DNA from: an uncultured Verrucomicrobiae bacterium
GTDB taxonomy: Bacteria; Verrucomicrobiota; Verrucomicrobiia; Palsa-1439
Direction of reading: 5' to 3'
Length of the DNA: 64,000 nucleotides
Assembly (NCBI GenBank): GCA_963712025.1
Contig: CAVQGJ010000011.1
Span: 135,929 to 199,928 of the forward strand
Below are positions 13,491-37,834 of this stretch, piece after piece; within the stretch, counting starts at the first letter, position 1; every line of letters begins with the position of its first letter. The position numbers and the translations under genes were made by a program. Under the pieces are notes generated by a model, which was not told where the DNA came from, did no database searches, and worked only from the letters and a program-made list of their open reading frames with translations.

Positions 13491-14919
13491 TCAGGACACT
13501 TCCAGCCGCTTGGCGATGCGGAATTTTTCGATGCGCTTGCGCAACGTCGCGCGGGTGATCCCCAGCAGCTTGGCGGCCTGCACTTGGTTTCCGTTGGTTT
13601 CAATCAGGGCTCGCGCGATCAATTCGCGTTCCACCAGCGCCATGATTTTCAGGCTCGGGTCTTTCTTGGCCAACGCGTAGAGCGGACGAACCGCCGCATC
13701 AATGGCCGCCGTCAGGTCCTCCGCCGGAACCGCGACCGCCCGCGATTCGCGCACTTCCGCGGGCAAATCCTTGGGCAGGATCGAATCGCCGCGGGCGACG
13801 ACTGCCGACCTCTCGATCACGTTTTCCAGTTCGCGCACGTTGCCGGGCCACGGAGACCGATCCAGTATCTTCAGTGCCTCCGAGGAAATCTTGGTGACCC
13901 GGCCGGCCGTCGTGCCTGATTTGGCCAGTCGTTGCAGGAAGTAATGCACCAGCAGGCGCACGTCCTCGCGGCGTTCGCGGAGCGGCGGGAGGTGAATGCG
14001 GACCACGTTGAGCCGGTAATACAGGTCTTCGCGAAACTTCTTGGCGGACACGAGTTGTTCGGGGGCCTTATTGGTCGCGGCGATCACCCGCACGTCCACG
14101 TGGAACGTCTGGTTGCCGCCGACGCGCTGGAATTCGCCGTTCTGCAGCACGCGGAGGATTTTCGTTTGCGTCGACAGGGGCATGTCGCCGATTTCGTCGA
14201 GGAAAATCGTCCCCTGGTCGCATTGCTCGAACTTGCCGATCCGCCGGTCGGCCGCGCCGGTGAACGCGCCTTTCTCGTGACCGAACAGTTCGCTCTCCAG
14301 AAGATTCTCGGGAATCGCGGCGCAGTTGATCGCCAGGAAGGCCTTCTCGGCGCGGCGGCTGTGGTGATAAATCGCGCGGGCCACCAGCTCCTTGCCCGGT
14401 CCCGCTTTCACCGGTGATCAGCACCGTGGCCTCGGATTGTGATACCTGGCCGATGAGCTTGAAGACCTGTTGCATCGCCTCGCTTTTGCCGACGATGCCC
14501 TCGGCATGGTCTTCACTGCTCAACAACGGCTGATAGCTGACCACCTCGCGCATGTCGCGCGCGGCCTTGAGGGCGGACTCGATCAGTGTCTTGAGCTTGG
14601 GCACTTCAAGGGGTTTGAGCACGTAGTCATACGCGCCCAACTTCATGGCCTCGATCGCTGTCTGGGTCGTGCCGTAGGCGGTCATCATGATGATGAGGAG
14701 TTTCGGGTCGAGTTCGCGCAGCTTCCGCAACGTATCGAGCCCGCTGGTGGCGCCCATGCGAATGTCCATCACCACCAGGTTCGGGCGCTCTTTGGCGACC
14801 ATGCGGATCGCCTCTTCGCCGTTGGCCGCATCCACGACCTGCAACGAATCGCTGGCGAGGTTACGGTGGAACGCGCGCCGGATGTCCGCCTCGTCATCGA
14901 CAACCAGGATCTTGTCCAT
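13491..14919 (-). CDS. Sigma54-dependent response regulator (NtrC family), split by a 1-nt frame change in the Walker A region
   Basis: [17 protein letters not shown] receiver domain. ...[12 protein letters not shown]|[12 protein letters not shown] is interrupted at the CCC run 14395-14397. GAFTGA motif (HEKGAFTGA) and C-terminal [20 protein letters not shown] are present. Confidence 0.85.
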
Positions 14920-15030
14920 AGGGTTCGCATCATAGTCACACCGTCCCCACAGGGCAAGCCCGCCTGTGGCAAACAATCGGCCGGGGATCACTACTTGCGG
15001 CACTCGCCCTTCAGTGTTAGGGATACAACA

Positions 15031-16245
15031 ATGAAATGGTCGCTTCCAATCGGGCGTGTATTCGGCATCAGCCTGCGGCTGCATTTTACATTTCTTCTAT
15101 TTCTTGCCTTCATTGCCTACGGAGGCTTCGTGGATGCAGGCCTCAACGGCGCCGGTTGGGCCGTAGCAATGTTCGGCTCGGTATTTGCCTGTATCGCCCT
15201 CCACGAGCTTGGGCATAGTGTTGTAGCCCAACAACTTGGCGTCCAAGTGAGAAGCATTACACTTCTGCCAATCGGTGGCGTGGCGGCGCTCCGGAGCATC
15301 CCGGAAAATCCCTGGCACGAGATCGCCATCACCGTGGCGGGGCCGATGGTCAATGCCGCCATCGCGTGCGCGTTGATCCCATTCACAGGCACGCCGTCAC
15401 ATTGGCTGATCGTGGCCATGCCCCAGGACATTCATGGTCTGTTGCTGAGTCTCACCCAGGCGAATATCACGCTCTTCGTGTTTAACTTTATTCCCGCGTT
15501 TCCGATGGACGGCGGGCGGCTGCTGCGCGCAGTGTTGGCCCTTGTCCTCCCGTACCGGCAAGCCACGACGATCGCCGCCATGGTGGGGCAGGGGTTGGCC
15601 ATCCTGTTCGTGGTGGCCGGATTGAAATTCTCTATCTGGCTCGTCCTGATCGGCGTGTTTATCTTCCTGGGCGCCGAAGGCGAGGAACGTGTCGTGCGGA
15701 TGCGAAGCGTATTGCGTAAACTGGCTGTGGAAGATGTGATGAGCCGGCCGGTCGCGACGCTTTCGCCATCGGATCCCGTGTGGCGCGGGATCGAGTTGAT
15801 CTATCAAACCGGGCAGGACGATTTTCCCGTGCTCCAAGAAGAAAGGCTCGTGGGCATCGTGACGCGGCCGGACCTCGTCGAAGCGATGAATGCGCAGGGA
15901 GCCAACACGCCGGTGGTGACGATTATGCAGGCCAGGGTGACGCTGGCGTCGCCGCGAGACGGGTTGGCGCAGGCGTGCGAAGAGATTATCAACGGCACAA
16001 ACACGAACGCCGTCCTCGTCGTGGATGACGGGCAGCTGGTCGGCATGGTTTCGCCCGAAAATATCAATCGCTACCTGTTGCTGCAATCGAGTCTCAAGTC
16101 GCCGCGCCGTCGCCGGGTGAGGGGAGTGCCGCCGTTACTCGTGACTTCGCAAAGTCCAGTGCCTCCGCGCGTGATTTCAGGCGGTCCTCCAATTGCAGTT
16201 CCTCCACCTCGCGCAGGATCTGTCCCACCATCGGGCCTGGTGTAA
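15031..16245 (+). CDS. Site-2 protease family (peptidase M50) with CBS pair; 3' end uncertain
   Basis: MKWSLPIGRVFGISLRLHFTF..., the HELGH zinc motif, FNFIPAFPMDGGRLLRA, and CBS-like VEDVMSRPVATLSP / LVGIVTRPDL. The tail overlaps cca by about 150 nt. Confidence 0.8.
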   Translation: MKWSLPIGRVFGISLRLHFTFLLFLAFIAYGGFVDAGLNGAGWAVAMFGSVFACIALHELGHSVVAQQLGVQVRSITLLPIGGVAALRSIPENPWHEIAITVAGPMVNAAIACALIPFTGTPSHWLIVAMPQDIHGLLLSLTQANITLFVFNFIPAFPMDGGRLLRAVLALVLPYRQATTIAAMVGQGLAILFVVAGLKFSIWLVLIGVFIFLGAEGEERVVRMRSVLRKLAVEDVMSRPVATLSPSDPVWRGIELIYQTGQDDFPVLQEERLVGIVTRPDLVEAMNAQGANTPVVTIMQARVTLASPRDGLAQACEEIINGTNTNAVLVVDDGQLVGMVSPENINRYLLLQSSLKSPRRRRVRGVPPLLVTSQSPVPPRVISGGPPIAVPPPRAGSVPPSGLV

Positions 16246-17581
16246 GCCCGAGAGCCAGCAAATCGTTGCCGTTCAAGAGCGGCGCGGGTTTGACTGCTTC
16301 CGGTGGCAACTCCGCGGCCTTGGCTTTGAGGAATTCGTAGTTCTCCAGGTTCCGGTGGCTCGATGCGCAATCGATCCGATGGAGTTCAAGTTCTTCGGGA
16401 AACGTGTCGCGGGCGAGGATGCGCTTGAGTTTCGCCGGACGCATTTCCCTGACGAATTGAAATCGCATGTGTTCGCGAACGCAAAGGACGATCTTGTCGA
16501 TCTCCTCGTTGGGGAAGCGGAGCCGGCGCAGAATCGTTTCCGCCATCTCCGCGCCGATACGGTCATGGTCGTTGAACCGGATCCGGTCCGGGGCGCGCTG
16601 GAACGTGGGCGGCTTGCCCACGTCGTGCAACAGGACGGCGAACGCGAGCACCACCGGGTTGTGGTAGGGCGCGCTCGCCGAGCACGCCGTTTCACTCATC
16701 GTCTCCAGCATCAGTCTCGTATGTTGGAACACATCCCCTTCGGGGTGAAACTCGGGTGGTTGCTCGACCCCTTTCATCGCGGCGATTTCGGGCAGAATTT
16801 CCGGCAACAACCCGCTGGCATCAAGCAATTCCAGGCCGCGACCCGCGTGCGGCCGCGTGAGAATCTTGATCAACTCGTCTCGGACACGCTCCGCGCTGAC
16901 AACGTTGATTTGGGACGCCATCTCCTTGACCGCGTCGAACGTCGCGGGGTCGATGGCAAATTCCAAATTTGCTGCAAATCGGACGGCGCGCAGCATTCGC
17001 AGTTTGTCTTCAGCGAACCGCTGCCGCGGATCGCCAATTGTGCGCACCAGCTTTCGCTCGATGTCGGCCCGACCACCAACATAATCAATTATCCCCGGTA
17101 GGGCATCTGTTGCCGTGGGTAGGGCACGCTGGCCTGTCCTGAGCGGAGTCGAAGGGCTCAACGCGCCGTCCGTCTGTTGAGGTAGGGCGCTCGCGCCGCG
17201 AGCGCCGTTTTGTGTCTCAGATGCCAACGGATCATAAAACAATCCGTTGACCGTGAAATCACGGCGCTGGGCGTCTTCTTGTGGCGATCCGTAATGAACG
17301 CCCGTGGGACGCCGCCCATCGATATAGGCGTCGTCGCTGCGAAAGGTGGCGACCTCGAATTGGTGTTCGCCGTCCAGGACCAACACGACGCCGAACGCGG
17401 CGCCGACGGGGACGGTCCTGGCAAAGAGCGCCTGGACATCCTCCGGCGTGGCGCTCGTGGCGATATCGAAGTCATGCGGCTCGATGCCCTGCACCATGTC
17501 GCGCACGCATCCGCCGACAAAATACGCCGTGTGGCCCGCCTTCCGCAGCCGTTGGACAATGTTCGTCGCGGTTTCCTTCAT
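16094..17581 (-). CDS. cca: CCA-adding tRNA nucleotidyltransferase (PolyA_pol head + HD domain) with an in-frame insertion of about 44 aa
   Basis: AYFVGGCVRDMV, DFDIAT, RRDFTVNGLFYDP...IIDYVGG...EDKLRMLRAVRFA, and HD motif LLHDVGKP. Confidence 0.85.
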   Translation of the reverse strand: MKETATNIVQRLRKAGHTAYFVGGCVRDMVQGIEPHDFDIATSATPEDVQALFARTVPVGAAFGVVLVLDGEHQFEVATFRSDDAYIDGRRPTGVHYGSPQEDAQRRDFTVNGLFYDPLASETQNGARGASALPQQTDGALSPSTPLRTGQRALPTATDALPGIIDYVGGRADIERKLVRTIGDPRQRFAEDKLRMLRAVRFAANLEFAIDPATFDAVKEMASQINVVSAERVRDELIKILTRPHAGRGLELLDASGLLPEILPEIAAMKGVEQPPEFHPEGDVFQHTRLMLETMSETACSASAPYHNPVVLAFAVLLHDVGKPPTFQRAPDRIRFNDHDRIGAEMAETILRRLRFPNEEIDKIVLCVREHMRFQFVREMRPAKLKRILARDTFPEELELHRIDCASSHRNLENYEFLKAKAAELPPEAVKPAPLLNGNDLLALGLTPGPMVGQILREVEELQLEDRLKSRAEALDFAKSRVTAALPSPGDGAAT

Positions 17582-17827
17582 CCCGAACAGACACTACTGG
17601 AGCACGTCGGTGCGTGCAAGCAGGGGAATGATTAGTTCGTTCGGCTCGGGGAACAAATGTGCGCCAACGGCGAAATCGTCAAGAGTCAGGTGTTGATCCG
17701 GCGTACTAGTGGTTCACTAGCGACTGAATGGGTGAAACTAATACAACAGATCCGTGAGAAAGGTCGAGAGTGAGCTTGTCAGTTAAGGGGAATCGTGGTT
17801 GGATTCCCTGAAATAGGAGGGTGTCCA

Positions 17828-18457
17828 ATGGCTCTGTCCAATGCATATTTGATGACGACGAAGAACCTCGAAAAGATGTTGGCGTCAATTCGTAACGCGC
17901 AAGCACCTGAAAAGTTCACCATTAAATTCTTGGAATCGTTGGGGTTCACGAGTACTAGCGACAGACTGATCATCGGAGTGTTGAAAGCGATGGGTTTTCT
18001 GGACGAGGCGAGCGTCCCGACGCAACGGTATTTTGAGTTCCTCGATGAAACACAGTATAAAGTGGTACTTGCCCAGGGCATCCGTGAGGCGTATGCCGAC
18101 TTATTTCGCGTGAATAACAAGGCGGAACAATTGGAGCAGAAGGAGGTAAAGAATAAGTTAAAGACCCTGACCCAGGGAGCGAAGAGCGACAAGGTGCTGG
18201 CTTTGATGGCGATGACTTTCGACGCACTTTGCGGTCTCGCAGATTTTTCGAAGGTCGCTGGGACGGCGAAACAGGAGAAGGCAACCGTAGCTGAGCAGAC
18301 GCAAACGAATGCTGACGGGGGTGAGCAACCCAAGGAGAAGAAGGCACGCGAGCACGGTTTTGATCTCGCATACAACATTCATATCGAATTGCCAGCGACT
18401 AGAGATCAGGCAATTTACGATGCGATTTTTCGCTCCCTGAAGGATCATCTTCTATGA
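17828..18457 (+). CDS. DUF5343-like protein (first gene of the AT-richer two-gene cassette)
   Basis: GGAGG lies 8 nt before ATG 17828. The N-terminal pattern NLEKMLASIRNAQAPEKFTIKFLESLGFTSTSDRLIIGVLKAMGFLDEASVPTQRYFEF matches my recollection of DUF5343. A charged linker follows, then the tail NIHIELPATRDQAIYDAIFRSLKDHL. Confidence 0.7.
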   Translation: MALSNAYLMTTKNLEKMLASIRNAQAPEKFTIKFLESLGFTSTSDRLIIGVLKAMGFLDEASVPTQRYFEFLDETQYKVVLAQGIREAYADLFRVNNKAEQLEQKEVKNKLKTLTQGAKSDKVLALMAMTFDALCGLADFSKVAGTAKQEKATVAEQTQTNADGGEQPKEKKAREHGFDLAYNIHIELPATRDQAIYDAIFRSLKDHLL

Positions 18458-19047
18458 ATATCCTTAACCGAGAGGACACAAAGCTCGCGGGCTTCATAAT
18501 GCGTGGTCTCTTGGCGTCAGAGTCTCTGGACCTGCTTCACGTGACCAAGGACAGGGCGGACGGGTTGGGTTTCAATGATATAGCAAACAAGGTGTCAATG
18601 AAGCTGCTTGATGAGGAAGCCGTGAATGACGCCACTAAGATGTCCGCCGTATATATCGCGATCGCGAGTTTTGAAAATGCTGTTAGGGAACTCATCTCAA
18701 GTCGATTGTTGGAAGACAAAGGCGCGGATTGGTGGAGTGCATGTGTGTCGGCGGATATCCGTCGGCGCGCGGACCTGAAAATTAAAGAGGAGCAGCAAAT
18801 TCGTTGGCATCAAGCGAGAGGGCTAAGCCCGATCTATTTTACAGAACTCAAGGATTTGACCTCAATAATTCAACAGAATTGGCCTTCGTTCGAGGCACTC
18901 CTTCGTGATGTGGACTGGGTGCGACATTTGATTCGGACAATTGAGCGGTCAAGAAATGTCATCATGCATAGTGGTCAGTTGGCTGTCGATGACATTGAAC
19001 GAGTCGGGATGAGTATTCGAGACTGGATCCGACAGGTTGGCGGTTGA
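18454..19047 (+). CDS. Swt1-like HEPN domain protein (predicted RNase)
   Basis: The start overlaps the upstream stop (ATGA). Motifs are FENAVRELI...GADWW...LKDLTSIIQQNW...IERSRNVIMHSGQL, with an R-x4-H HEPN motif (RNVIMH). Confidence 0.75.
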   Translation: MNILNREDTKLAGFIMRGLLASESLDLLHVTKDRADGLGFNDIANKVSMKLLDEEAVNDATKMSAVYIAIASFENAVRELISSRLLEDKGADWWSACVSADIRRRADLKIKEEQQIRWHQARGLSPIYFTELKDLTSIIQQNWPSFEALLRDVDWVRHLIRTIERSRNVIMHSGQLAVDDIERVGMSIRDWIRQVGG

Positions 19048-19206
19048 GCACAGTTGCTTGTCGTGCACCAAGAGGGGAGTGGTGGGCGGGCGGGCACTCG
19101 TATGAGGTGGGGCAAAGCGCGCGATGGGTCGCCAAATTCCAGAGCGAGAACGGCACTAAATGGACTGTATGGCTTTGGGGGCGGGGTTCTGCTATCCTTG
19201 GCCCGC

Positions 19207-21649
19207 GTGAGAACGAAGCCGGAGTTGATCGCCCCTGCGGGGAACATGGAATGCGCGCGCGCGGCTGTGGCCAACGGCGCGGACGCGGTGTATTTCGGTC
19301 TGCCGCGCTTCAACGCCCGGATGCGGGCGGACAATTTTACGGAGGAGCAGTTGCCGGAGTTGGTTCGGTTTCTGCACGCGCATCGTGTCCGGGCATTTTG
19401 CACGGTCAACACGCTCATTTTCACCGACGAACTCACCGACGCCGAACGCGAGTTGATGCTGCTCGACGCGGCGGGCGTGGATGTGGTGATCGTCCAGGAC
19501 CTCGGATTGGCGGTGCTCGCGCGCGAATTGGGCACGAAGATGGATGTTCATGCGTCGACGCAAATGACGATCACGTCACCGGAGGGCGCGAAGTTTGCGG
19601 CCCGGCTTGGCATCAAGCGGGTCGTGTTGGCGCGCGAGGCATCGATGCCGGAGATGGCGAAGTTTGGCGGAGCCGCCGAGGGTCTGCCGTCACTGGAGGT
19701 GTTTGTGCACGGCGCGTTGTGCGTGGCGTATTCGGGCCAGTGCCTGACGAGTGAGGCGTTGGGGCAACGGAGCGCCAACCGCGGGGAGTGCGCGCAGGCG
19801 TGCCGGTTGCCGTACGAACTGATCGTCGACGGCGTCGTGAAAGAGTTGGGCGACCGTCGATACCTGCTGTCGCCGCAGGACCTGATGGCGGTGCAGGAGA
19901 TTCCGGAACTGATTCGTCTCGGCGTGAGCGGTTTCAAGATCGAGGGGCGGCTAAAATCTCCCGAGTACGTGGCGGCGACGTGCCAGGTGTACCGCAAGGC
20001 GATTGACGCGGCGCTCGCGGAGCAATCCGCTGCCGTTGACGGCGCCGACAAGTACAAGCTGGAGATGACCTTCTCTCGCGGTCTGTATTCCGGTTGGTTG
20101 CATGGCGTGAACCATCAGGAATTGGTGCGGGCACGGTTCGGCAAGAAACGCGGGCCGTTTGTCGGAGCGATCCGACAGGTCGGGGCGGATCACGTCGAGG
20201 TGGACGCGCAGACGCCGTTGTCCGCCGGCGACGGCGTGGTGTTCGACACGGGTGGCGATCCGGACCACGAACAAGGCGGACGCATCTGGCAGGTGCGCGA
20301 GAATTGCCTGTTTTTCGAGCGTGGCCATGTGGACTTTGGCCGGTTGAAGCCGGGTGACCGGGTGTGGAAGACGAGCGACCCGCAACTCGAACGCGAGTTG
20401 AGGCGAACGTACAAGGGCGACATTCCGTTGCCGAAGACGAGGATCGACCTCGCGGTGAGTGGAGCCGTCGGCACACTCCTGACGGTGGAAGCGAATGGGG
20501 TGCGCGTCAATTCGTCGATGCCATTGCAGACGGCGTTCAAGCGGCCGCTGACGGAGAAAGCGTTGCGGGACCAACTCGGCCGTCTCGGGGAAACGGATTT
20601 CGTGTTGGGGGAGATCCATAACAAGCTCGTTGGACAAACCATTCTGCCCGTAAGCGAATTGAACCGGTTGCGTCGAGAACTCGTCGAGAAGATTCATTCA
20701 CCACGACAGGATGGGAATAATGAGGCGCAACCGTCACCCGCTGTTACGTCGGTTCTTTCGGAGTTGTTGGCGAACGTTCCGAGAGAAACGGTTGATCGTC
20801 CCCGGCAACTGGTTGCGCTCTGTCGAACGATGGATCAGCTCTCCGCCGCGCTGGAATCCGGTTGCGCCACCGTCTACGTGGATTTCGAGGACATCCGGCG
20901 GTATCACGAGGCTGTCGCGCAGGTGCGAGAGCGGGGCGGGGCAGAAATCTATCTGGCCACGCCGCGAATTCAAAAAGCCGGCGAGCAGGGGTTCTTCAAG
21001 CTGATCGAATCGGCCAAGCCGGATGGAGTTCTCATTCGCAACCTCGGCGGTCTGGATTATTTCCGGAGCAGTACGCTGCGAAAGGTCGGCGATTTTTCGC
21101 TCAATGTGGCCAATCCGTTGTCCGCCGAGCTTCTGATGCGGCGAGGGATTGGAACGCCTGACGGTTTCCTACGACCTGAACGCGCAGCAGGTGATCGATT
21201 TGTTACACGCGGCGCCGCCGCATTGGTTCGAGTTGACGGTCCACCAGCACATGCCGATGTTTCACATGGAGCACTGCGTGTTTGCAGCGTTTATGTCCAA
21301 TGGGACTGATGCCACGAATTGCGGGCGACCCTGCGACCGCCATAACGTGAAATTGCGCGATCGCGTGGGCGCGGAACATCCCCTCAAAGCGGACGTGGGC
21401 TGCCGCAACACCGTGTACCACGCAAAGGCCCAGAGCGGCGGTGATTTCGTGCGATCATTTGTCGAGGCCGGCACCCGCATCTTTCGCGTGGAATTGCTCG
21501 ACGAAGACGCCGCGAAAACGCGCGCGATCCTGCAGGCATACCGGGATTTGATCGAGGGAACCACGGCCGATTCATCCACTCGATTCCGCGGCTTAAATGT
21601 GGTGAAACAGTTGGGCGTTACCAGCGGGACATTGACCGTTTTGTCGTGA
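19207..21649 (+). CDS. Peptidase U32 family protein (long form), split by a frame change near 21145-21152
   Basis: VRTKPELIAPAGNMECARAAVANGADAVYFG, SGFKIEGRLKSPEYV. ORF 19054..21309 (...AELLMRRGI) continues in ORF 21149..21649 (ERLTVSYDLNAQQVIDLL...). GTG 19207 is chosen as the start. Confidence 0.8.
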
Positions 21650-36590: not shown

Positions 36591-37834
36591 CTAGAAGAAT
36601 AGGTCACCGTCCTTTTCAATGGCGTCGGAAAAATGCTGAAAAGTTCCGCCGGCTATCGGACTAGACATCCAATGCCAACGAGGCTGGAACTCGATCAGCT
36701 TTTGAAATTGCGGGGCGAAGCATTCGCCGTATCGTCTCTTCATATCCTCAGCGTCTGCGTCCTCGCGAAAGAGGACAGGGTTAAATACAACGACCTTCCT
36801 AAGATCACGGTTGGGACCGAGCGCCGTCTTAAAAAAGTACTGCATGTAGACGTCGGTACGCGGGAGACTGTAGCCAACGATGAAGATTTTCTTTGCGGTT
36901 CGGAGCCTTGAGAGAGCGGTCCTCCACATTGATGCAGCGTCTGTCATGGAGAGCTTGTTGAATATCGGAGGGAGTATATATGGATCGGCAACCGGGTTGG
37001 TTGGATGATCGAGGTTGCTAAGTTGTTGTGCTGGCGCATTGGTGGGGCTTCTTGATGGGGTGGGGAAATTCAGAGAGCCATGAAGCTTGAGTATTTCTAT
37101 CTCCAGAGGCTTCTTCACCTGATCGAATCTGGCAGTGACAAGGGCGGTCCCCAGAACAGGATTGGAGTAGCCCATATGCTGGTAGGTCCGAGATTGGACC
37201 AGATAAGCATAATCCTGAATGCCCTCGTAATGATATTTCAGTTTGATTCCCTCGAAGGGAAAGTTGCCTCTACGCTCGGTCCATATTCACAACTGTTCAG
37301 GAGTTGGAACAATGTGCGTTCCAACACAAGGTCGTAGTTGAAGTTGATAATCGTGGGCAGCGTGCCAACGGGGGCGGACTTCTGAAACAGTCGTGCCCAA
37401 AACTCTGTGTAGGGAACGAGGCCGAGGCCGGCTTTCTCTGGAATGGTGCCGTCGTGCTTCGCAACGCAAGTGAGTTCGATTGTCCGAGCGATCGCCTTAA
37501 TGATCGCGTTCCACTTGGTGCGTTGCGCCTCCTCGCCACCCATCACGTCAAATGACAGAATCGAGAGTATGTCTTCGATGTTTCTGTCGTCAAACGCGGC
37601 GCGTCCGTGATAACCGTCTAGCTCATTGATTACATCTATCGCGCTCTGAAAAATCGCCCTATCGTCCTCGGACAATGGTTTGAGCCTGTTGGTTCCTCGC
37701 TGGTGAAAATCCAACATCTTCTCGACAAACTCCGCGAGTAGCGGAATGCCAGCGTCCCTTGAGGCCCCGGCACCGAAGATGATGACGTTGTCGCTCACAG
37801 GCTGGATTGTAGTGACGGCGAAGCGCTTCGACAA
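36591..37834 (-). CDS. SIR2-like (SIR2_2 family) protein, about 414 aa, split by one frame change located within 37241-37286
   Basis: VIIFGAGASRDAGIP, INFNYDLVLE, LKLHGSLNF, IFIVGYSLPRTD. The frame upstream of ORF 36591..37175 reads GNFPFEGIKLKYHYEGIQDYAYLVQSRTYQHMGYSN and joins it to ORF 37238..37834. Confidence 0.7.

Follow-up and report, generated by a model that had tools for sequence, protein, structure and literature searches.

A PDC-M34-type gene pair encoding a DUF5343 protein and a Swt1-like HEPN protein: a candidate RNase conflict module inserted between cca and a U32 peptidase gene in a Verrucomicrobiae genome

HEPN ribonucleases (RNases) are metal-independent enzymes whose active site is formed across a dimer, and they are controlled in several ways: by AMPylation through a minimal nucleotidyltransferase (MNT), by binding of cyclic oligoadenylate to CARF domains, and by crRNA guidance in Cas13. 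In RnlA-RnlB and LsoA-LsoB a HEPN RNase is restrained by a directly binding protein partner and freed on phage infection; in rnlAB the toxin gene comes first, and RnlA is a multi-domain protein. Here we describe a two-gene cassette on contig CAVQGJ010000011.1 of an uncultured Verrucomicrobiae bacterium, within a 64-kb stretch of DNA that was analysed as a whole (hereafter the window). The first open reading frame (ORF1) encodes a DUF5343 protein and the second (ORF2) a Swt1-like HEPN protein, a predicted endoribonuclease effector. We are confident that the pair is a mobile conflict-type module with a HEPN endoribonuclease as its effector. The reading we prefer, to which we give a probability of roughly one half, is that of a self-contained conflict module in which the RNase would be kept latent by its DUF5343 partner and released by phage.

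The pair matches PDC-M34, one of the PDC-x entries that PADLOC lists as its unpublished "phage defence candidates" (PMC11811056). In PADLOC-DB v2, ORF1 matched PDC-M34A (PDLC04589; E 1.1e-80, residues 1–208 on model positions 1–207 of 208) and ORF2 matched PDC-M34B (PDLC04592; E 3.2e-68, residues 9–196 on model positions 4–191 of 192). With both models matched by adjacent genes on the same strand, the window pair can be assigned to PDC-M34 by sequence; gene order, strand and adjacency are the same, and no structural difference was seen. An earlier, sequence-only reading of this DNA had stated that the cassette corresponded to no named defence system, which the full-length matches to both models of this unpublished candidate contradict. 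The pair is already catalogued as a candidate and adds no new category; it is one of many catalogued candidates, and a specialist equipped with PADLOC would recognise it immediately. A study testing eight PDC candidates did not include PDC-M34.

The HEPN-MNT (HepT-MntA) type VII toxin-antitoxin module resembles the pair in that a small Rx4-6H HEPN RNase gene lies directly downstream of its partner gene and overlaps it, and both types are widespread and horizontally mobile. The partner in HEPN-MNT is an MNT, whereas DUF5343 is the sole Pfam match of ORF1; NCBIfam gave nothing relevant for it, and NCBIfam and PHROGs were of no use for the pair as a whole. The lack of an MNT partner had already been noticed from the sequence, and since no nucleotidyltransferase family was matched, neutralisation by AMPylation is excluded for this pair. 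The RNases differ too: HepT belongs to the HepT/DUF86 clade and ORF2 to the Swt1/Abi2 clade, and HepT chains were insignificant in Foldseek searches. AbiD and AbiF (Abi2), defence-associated predicted RNases, share the HEPN clade of ORF2 in the survey of Anantharaman et al. (2013) (PMC3710099); unlike them, the window pair has a protein partner, with no Rfam RNA and no Abi_2 match in Pfam. An AbiF-like non-coding RNA partner was rejected because a scan of 17000–19600 against Rfam gave nothing beyond a chance-level match and the leader of the cassette is not conserved. RnlA-RnlB and LsoA-LsoB are close in concept to the model preferred here; no sequence relationship to either component was detected. 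Eukaryotic Swt1 is the name-giving member of PF18731, the family that ORF2 matches. Its HEPN domain is fused to a PIN domain and considered catalytically inactive, in contrast to the stand-alone ORF2 with an intact Rx4H motif, and the eukaryotic domain probably derives from active bacterial forms (PMC3710099). In the same survey, the Abi2/Swt1 clade to which the bacterial Swt1-like proteins are assigned has members that are catalytically active and associated with restriction-modification; no DUF5343 partner is described (PMC3710099).

The features of the cassette are as follows (positions are those of the window).

17604–19186, no strand: insert between cca and the U32 gene, taken as acquired from the empty site in the related contig L155 and low GC; left edge possibly near 17640
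17828–18457, plus strand: ORF1, 209 aa, DUF5343 / PDC-M34A (Pfam, PADLOC, alignment)
17828–18253, plus strand: ORF1 N-terminal globular domain, residues 1–142 (AlphaFold2 model; block means of the predicted local distance difference test, pLDDT, about 82–94)
18254–18361, plus strand: ORF1 variable charged linker, residues ~143–178, predicted to be disordered (pLDDT <50 for residues 145–180)
18362–18454, plus strand: ORF1 C-terminal tail, residues 179–209, strand-like YNIHIELP followed by the helix TRDQAIYDAIFRSLKDHLL (conservation and AlphaFold2)
18454–18457, plus strand: ATGA overlap of the ORF1 stop and the ORF2 start, giving translational coupling (sequence)
18454–19047, plus strand: ORF2, 197 aa, Swt1-like HEPN / PDC-M34B, predicted endoribonuclease effector (Pfam, PADLOC)
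18952–18969, plus strand: codons of the HEPN catalytic motif R167-N-V-I-M-H172, Rx4H (conservation)

Results of a pattern scan over one genome per GTDB species showed that the two genes occur together. Relatives of ORF1 were found in 163 of 185,579 genomes, 80 of which were kept, representing more than 15 phyla (Verrucomicrobiota, Bacteroidota, Bacillota, Patescibacteria, Acidobacteriota, Actinomycetota, Pseudomonadota, Chloroflexota, Spirochaetota, Planctomycetota, Ignavibacteriota, Gemmatimonadota, Nitrospirota and others). The HEPN gene lies directly downstream of the DUF5343 gene on the same strand in 80/80 genomes, an adjacency across genomes for which the sequence-only reading had asked. 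The pairwise identities of ORF1 and ORF2 are correlated (r = 0.87, Mantel p = 0.001), which indicates that the pair travels and diverges as one unit. Across phyla the proteins share a mean pairwise identity of ~50%, a high value for a conflict system, and the HEPN protein is 56–79% identical among the best 120 matches. All-against-all clustering of 560 neighbour ORFs revealed no conserved third gene. Among the long members of the DUF5343 family no Rosetta-stone DUF5343-HEPN fusion was found; these comprise forms with long linkers, a TPR fusion and a protein with an AAA_21 fragment that may be an artefact of gene calling.

ORF2 matches the Pfam family HEPN_Swt1 (PF18731) over residues 71–196 with E 5.1e-10 and 40.1 bits against a cut-off of 27.5, and its homologues, which fall into 541 clusters at 90% identity, carry the NCBI label 'Swt1 family HEPN domain-containing protein'. 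Positions E164, S166, R167, N168, M171, H172 and G174 are conserved at >=97% in a 27-homologue alignment and in 64 genome sequences, and so are F73, E74, N75 and R78 of the first core helix. The pattern [SA]RNxxMH was present in every intact copy of ORF2 inspected. AlphaFold2 predicts an all-helical ORF2 (pLDDT 81, core >90); confidence is lower for the N-terminal 50 residues, in which A12-G13-F14 are conserved. By family profile and invariant Rx4H motif, ORF2 is thus placed as a HEPN protein of the Swt1/Abi2 clade, in agreement with the earlier assignment.

The assignment of ORF1 to DUF5343 (PF17278) likewise held, at E 1.7e-46 and 158.4 bits against a cut-off of 27 (residues 7–142 on model positions 2–137 of 140). 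Its homologues form 1042 clusters at 90% identity. An alternative GTG start at 17795 is not supported, as all homologues begin at the MAL... of ATG 17828. In the AlphaFold2 model the globular domain consists of helices 14–23, 32–37 and 45–54, two short strands and then five helices, an order of elements corresponding to a winged helix-turn-helix with a helical extension. A profile search against the PDB returned the winged-helix protein MJ0223 (1ku9), a weak match (E 3.8e-4) that covers the helix-turn-helix and the wing together with the helices after them. We therefore consider it probable, on the model and this match, that the domain is winged-helix-like. Among 64 genomes, mean conservation is 0.66 for the domain, 0.19 for the linker and 0.78, the highest of the protein, for the tail, where Y182, L188, P189, Y197, D198, A199 and F201 are conserved at >=97% and the model places a helix at residues 194–208.

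The two plus-strand ORFs, their ATGA overlap and the peptide strings quoted in the sequence-only reading were all present at the expected positions and lengths. A 4-nt overlap is the commonest ORF1/ORF2 junction, occurring in 32/72 scored genomes. The GGAGG reported ahead of ORF1 is also there, at 17816–17820; its spacing to ATG 17828 is 7 nt rather than the 8 nt given before. DNA similarity to the nearest other copies (70–73% identity) is confined to 17828–19043, that is, from the start of ORF1 to the end of ORF2, and neither leader nor trailer matched any DNA among 170 loci or in the rest of the window. The two coding sequences alone constitute the conserved, transferable unit.

The features at the site of the cassette are as follows.

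16094–17581, minus strand: cca, CCA-adding enzyme (PolyA_pol, PolyA_pol_RNAbd and HD; Pfam)
17604–17827, plus strand: 5' non-coding leader, 224 nt (sequence and inverted-repeat scan)
19048–19186, plus strand: 3' non-coding tail, 139 nt, without similarity to other cassettes
from ~19207, plus strand: U32 peptidase (Pfam)

The GC content of 17604–19186 is 0.511, compared with 0.600 for the whole window, and this is the lowest value among all 1.58-kb segments (mean 0.5996, standard deviation 0.0225; about −3.9 standard deviations). In 400-nt segments GC is ~0.49–0.53 across 17600–19200 vs ~0.61 in the flanks, and at third codon positions (GC3) it is 0.60 in ORF1 and 0.55 in ORF2, compared with 0.72–0.73 in cca and the U32 gene. 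Metagenome contigs were scanned with the cca protein of the window. A related contig, L155, has the same arrangement of genes, with amino acid identities of 74% for cca, 86% for U32 and 70% for the M50 protease, and its gap between cca and U32 is only ~100 nt. In the DNA alignment, homology ends at 17603 and restarts at 19187, with weak residual similarity perhaps up to ~17640. The AT-rich, two-gene cassette between cca and U32 described from the sequence is therefore real; its extent, earlier put at 17640–19100, is slightly wider by the empty site, 17604 (or ~17640) to 19186. The empty site in L155 together with the GC and GC3 deficit points to a gain of ~1.58 kb by horizontal transfer rather than a loss in the relative. 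As noted before from the sequence, neither an integrase nor a flanking direct repeat was found at the site; a target-site duplication and terminal inverted repeats were likewise not found, the repeats seen are short and at chance level, and no tRNA lies nearby, the sole tRNA of the window being at 53.2 kb.

The leader contains two inverted repeats, CTAGTG-GTT-CACTAG (17706–17720) and GGGAATC-N7-GATTCCC (17788–17808). No sigma-70-like promoter was found upstream of ORF1 in a scan of 17400–19400, and no terminator-like site in the 3' tail. Inverted repeats are mildly over-represented in the leaders of other copies, and many of them resemble upstream terminators. The weak GTTAG(C) signal of these leaders often takes the form GCGTTAGCC, mainly in high-GC hosts; the window's own leader carries only GTCAGTTAAGG.

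Across genomes the pair resides preferentially among defence genes. The 150 immediate neighbours include the restriction enzymes HaeIII and XamI, a C5 methylase, an MmeI-type IIG enzyme, a type I specificity subunit, type IV/GmrSD enzymes, ResIII helicases, Drt2, Fic/SoFic, several PDC/HEC candidates and integrases, as well as ordinary metabolic genes. They match 282 PADLOC families, compared with 49 for 145 neighbours of cca taken as a control from 71 metagenome loci with the same gene calling (E <=1e-5), a crude comparison with a clear difference; nearly all matches of the control are generic AAA/Lon similarities, plus one kinase. The enrichment in defence genes that the sequence-only reading proposed to look for is thus present, and its suspicion that the neighbourhood of cca is coincidental was borne out. 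A functional link to cca was rejected, as no other locus has cca beside the pair and the neighbours differ everywhere.

Close copies, 75–79% identical, occupy differing sites: after an N6/N4 DNA methyltransferase gene and before an IS110 transposase gene, after a DUF4145 gene, or beside an integrase gene. In Dehalobacter the leu/ilv operon ends with the pair, in a patch that is variable and also contains transposases and a MazE-PIN pair. At two loci 77% identical to the window pair (L081, 7737–13133; L082, 262–5658), a gene for a 522-aa N6/N4 DNA methyltransferase precedes the pair by 70 nt in the same orientation, and ~1.2 kb downstream comes an IS110-family transposase gene. The trio recurs in these two genomic contexts and may move together. 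No match to the pair was found among 50,697 phage genomes; 72,556 plasmids gave 2 matches, both distant and to the HEPN protein only, and 2.9 million IMG/VR contigs gave 2. This near absence lends no support to an origin from phages or through plasmid addiction. Separately, a 249-aa protein on the Sphaerospermopsis kisseleviana plasmid AP018315.1 (L161, 3719–4468) matches PDC-M34B (E 2.6e-41) and HEPN_Swt1, and has its own N-terminal extension of 100 residues and no DUF5343 neighbour, its upstream gene being lipoprotein-like. Here the HEPN component occurs as a solo variant, carried by a conjugative plasmid.

In the mechanism that we favour, ORF2 would be, by analogy with other HEPN RNases, a metal-independent endoribonuclease that dimerises to build its active site. 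ORF1, supplied through coupled translation, would bind it stoichiometrically and hold the RNase latent, the flexible linker allowing both the conserved tail and the globular domain to contact it. A phage-dependent event would free the RNase: ORF1 might be lost or titrated, for instance, or its winged-helix domain might bind a nucleic acid or protein of the phage. The freed RNase may then cleave cellular and/or phage RNA and cause growth arrest in the manner of abortive infection or of a toxin-antitoxin system. ORF1 resembles an antitoxin in being encoded upstream and in combining a winged-helix-like domain with a disordered linker and a conserved tail. As in type II toxin-antitoxin systems, the small upstream gene overlaps the downstream gene of the predicted toxin. 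The RNase-effector part of this model is well supported; the direction of control by ORF1, that is, inhibitor rather than activator, is its weakest step.

Several observations weigh against this latency model. Foldseek searches of the ORF2 model gave no PDB match with E <0.2 (the HEPN chains 6m6w, 6m6u and 4nqf appeared at E ~2–3) and no significant match in the viral BFVD, and the ORF2 sequence profile had no match in the PDB, so that the HEPN assignment rests on the Pfam profile and the motif and not on fold comparison. The Foldseek search of the ORF1 model against the PDB was not significant either, with GntR, FadR and MarR regulators among the weak matches, and neither protein is strongly basic or acidic. 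The window's pair is a lone insert among housekeeping genes, not part of a defence island, and the near absence from phage and plasmid collections fits poorly with its mobility. The literature searched gave no experiment on PDC-M34 or DUF5343, and for PDC-M34, DUF5343, PF17278, PF18731 and HEPN_Swt1 it gave nothing beyond the 2013 HEPN survey. Nor did 79 leaders upstream of ORF1 homologues have an operator motif in common, and in a k-mer analysis of 80 leaders only the Shine-Dalgarno sequence, TTGAC (a -35 element) and weakly GTTAG(C) were enriched, GTTAG occurring in 15/80 leaders (100 nt upstream, L001–L080) vs 5.9 expected from shuffles (z ~4). The lack of a common motif is hard to reconcile with a highly conserved DNA-binding domain serving only autoregulation.

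DUF5343 genes without a HEPN partner count on the same side. The family comprises 2605 representative clusters at 50% identity, and its members of 318–606 aa keep the N-terminal domain and the tail around a linker expanded to 150–420 Pro/Ala/Glu-rich residues. Two of these, of different clusters and with Pro/Ala-rich disordered linkers (L162, 5001–6731, 576 aa; L171, 4001–4957, 318 aa), are solo genes in a common synteny of FAD oxidase, DUF5343, purine-nucleoside phosphorylase (PNP_UDP_1) and phosphoribosyltransferase genes, with no HEPN gene; the TPR fusion is solo as well. This solo clade is vertically inherited in housekeeping synteny and has the same domain-linker-tail layout, which indicates that DUF5343, tail included, has a function of its own. 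In addition, two loci have an intact HEPN gene behind a DUF5343 gene disrupted by a nonsense codon: at codon 25 in L003 (10001–10615), and at the conserved Tyr182, removing the tail, in L040 (10001–10630). A strict antitoxin should not be lost first, so these copies complicate the antitoxin reading. The reverse case, frameshifts in the HEPN gene, is equally frequent (L024 and L076), and in L038 both genes are damaged; there is thus no asymmetry of decay between the two genes (2 vs 2 of 80 genomes, small numbers), and a type II system differs in this respect, given that a predicted toxin without a functional antitoxin occurs in L003 and L040. Either these two copies contain sequencing errors or the RNase is tolerated without its partner. 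Both solo clades and partner-null copies argue against a simple antitoxin role for ORF1.

The alternative that survives best reverses the control. Here the HEPN protein would be inert alone, and the DUF5343 protein would sense an invader's nucleic acid or protein with its winged-helix-like domain and activate the RNase or recruit it to its RNA target; the module would remain a defence system without being a toxin-antitoxin pair. The solo, syntenic, vertically inherited DUF5343 genes suggest a biochemical activity of their own, the conservation of the globular domain (0.66) far exceeds what is expected of an antitoxin that binds only its own, non-conserved promoter, and the intact RNase genes beside disrupted partners fit as well; the defence-rich context suits this alternative as it does the latency model. 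Against it, gene order, the 4-nt overlap, small protein sizes and the anatomy of disordered linker plus tail are classic for inhibitor-effector pairs, and L003 and L040 are metagenome bins in which sequencing errors are possible and polarity could silence the downstream HEPN gene. We hold a sensing or targeting role to be tentative, and nearly as likely as latency. A more elaborate form, in which DUF5343 is a tethered sensor made of a winged-helix-like domain, an extensible disordered linker and a strand-helix tail, and not an antitoxin, with a housekeeping role in some lineages and recruited to switch on a Swt1-clade HEPN RNase on meeting an invader's nucleic acid or protein, is put forward as a possibility that we ourselves regard as somewhat doubtful.

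A plain addiction or stress toxin-antitoxin system with no part in phage defence, in which a labile ORF1 antitoxin regulates its own expression, ORF2 acts as an RNase toxin, and the pair persists as a selfish element that stabilises the DNA around it, is unlikely. It would share the antitoxin-like anatomy of the pair with the latency model, and it would suit both the copies seen beside other toxin-antitoxin pairs, transposases and integrases and the lone insertion between housekeeping genes in the window. Addiction modules thrive on plasmids, however, where the pair is nearly absent; its neighbours are mostly restriction and other defence genes, not mobile-element backbones; and neither a decay asymmetry nor a common palindromic operator was seen. 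Plasmid near absence, defence-rich neighbours, patchiness and the insertion with its empty site make this alternative, and the next, less likely. A non-conflict pair for RNA processing or regulation (e.g., tRNA or rRNA maturation or turnover), mobile by chance and with the solo DUF5343 genes as the ancestral housekeeping form, could draw on the unusually high conservation, on the solo clade and on the eukaryotic HEPN proteins Swt1 and Las1, which act in RNA surveillance and processing (PMC3710099), but it is very improbable given the very patchy distribution with the patterns used, the foreign composition, the empty site in a close relative, and contexts that differ in each genome with defence-enriched neighbours and an adjacency to cca unique to the window.

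The farther flanks encode, by Pfam, an M50/CBS protease, a sigma-54 regulator, a secretin and an LPG-synthase-like protein, all of them housekeeping. The sigma-54-dependent response regulator is broken into two overlapping ORFs on the minus strand (13491–15084): 14068–15084 encodes the receiver domain and the sigma-54 interaction domain up to its residue 35, and 13491–14411 the remainder of the latter domain with AAA_lid_14 and HTH_8. The split is due to a frameshift, a pseudogene or a sequencing error. The U32 gene (19207–21649, plus strand) also lies in two overlapping ORFs, with U32 and DUF3656 up to 21309 and a second, partial U32 domain at 21149–21649, possibly through a frameshift in a two-domain U32 protein. 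Another AT-rich islet at 36591–37834 (minus strand), between low-molecular-weight phosphatase/ArsC-like genes and folE, is the sole further dip below 0.55 in GC (~0.54 in 1.58-kb segments). Its two consecutive ORFs, 37238–37834 and 36591–37175, have no Pfam match and match weakly the N- and C-terminal halves of PADLOC SIR2 / Aga_SIR2 (E 9e-7 and 3.5e-4), which suggests a SIR2-like defence gene that has been split or frameshifted.

What is new here is the pairing of an insertion with its empty site, which shows that the coding sequences alone transfer, the strict pairing and co-evolution of the two genes over more than 15 phyla with unusually high conservation, the three-part architecture of DUF5343, its solo, vertically inherited form and the disrupted-partner copies with an intact RNase. 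The analysis sharpens the question of whether the RNase is inhibited or activated by its DUF5343 partner. Should PDC-M34 turn out to function in defence or as a toxin system, it would represent a compact RNase module of 1.2 kb whose regulator is of a new type. If DUF5343 did act as a tethered sensor, it would add a fourth mode of control for HEPN RNases, and eukaryotic Swt1 would gain its first active bacterial relative that is tractable in experiments.

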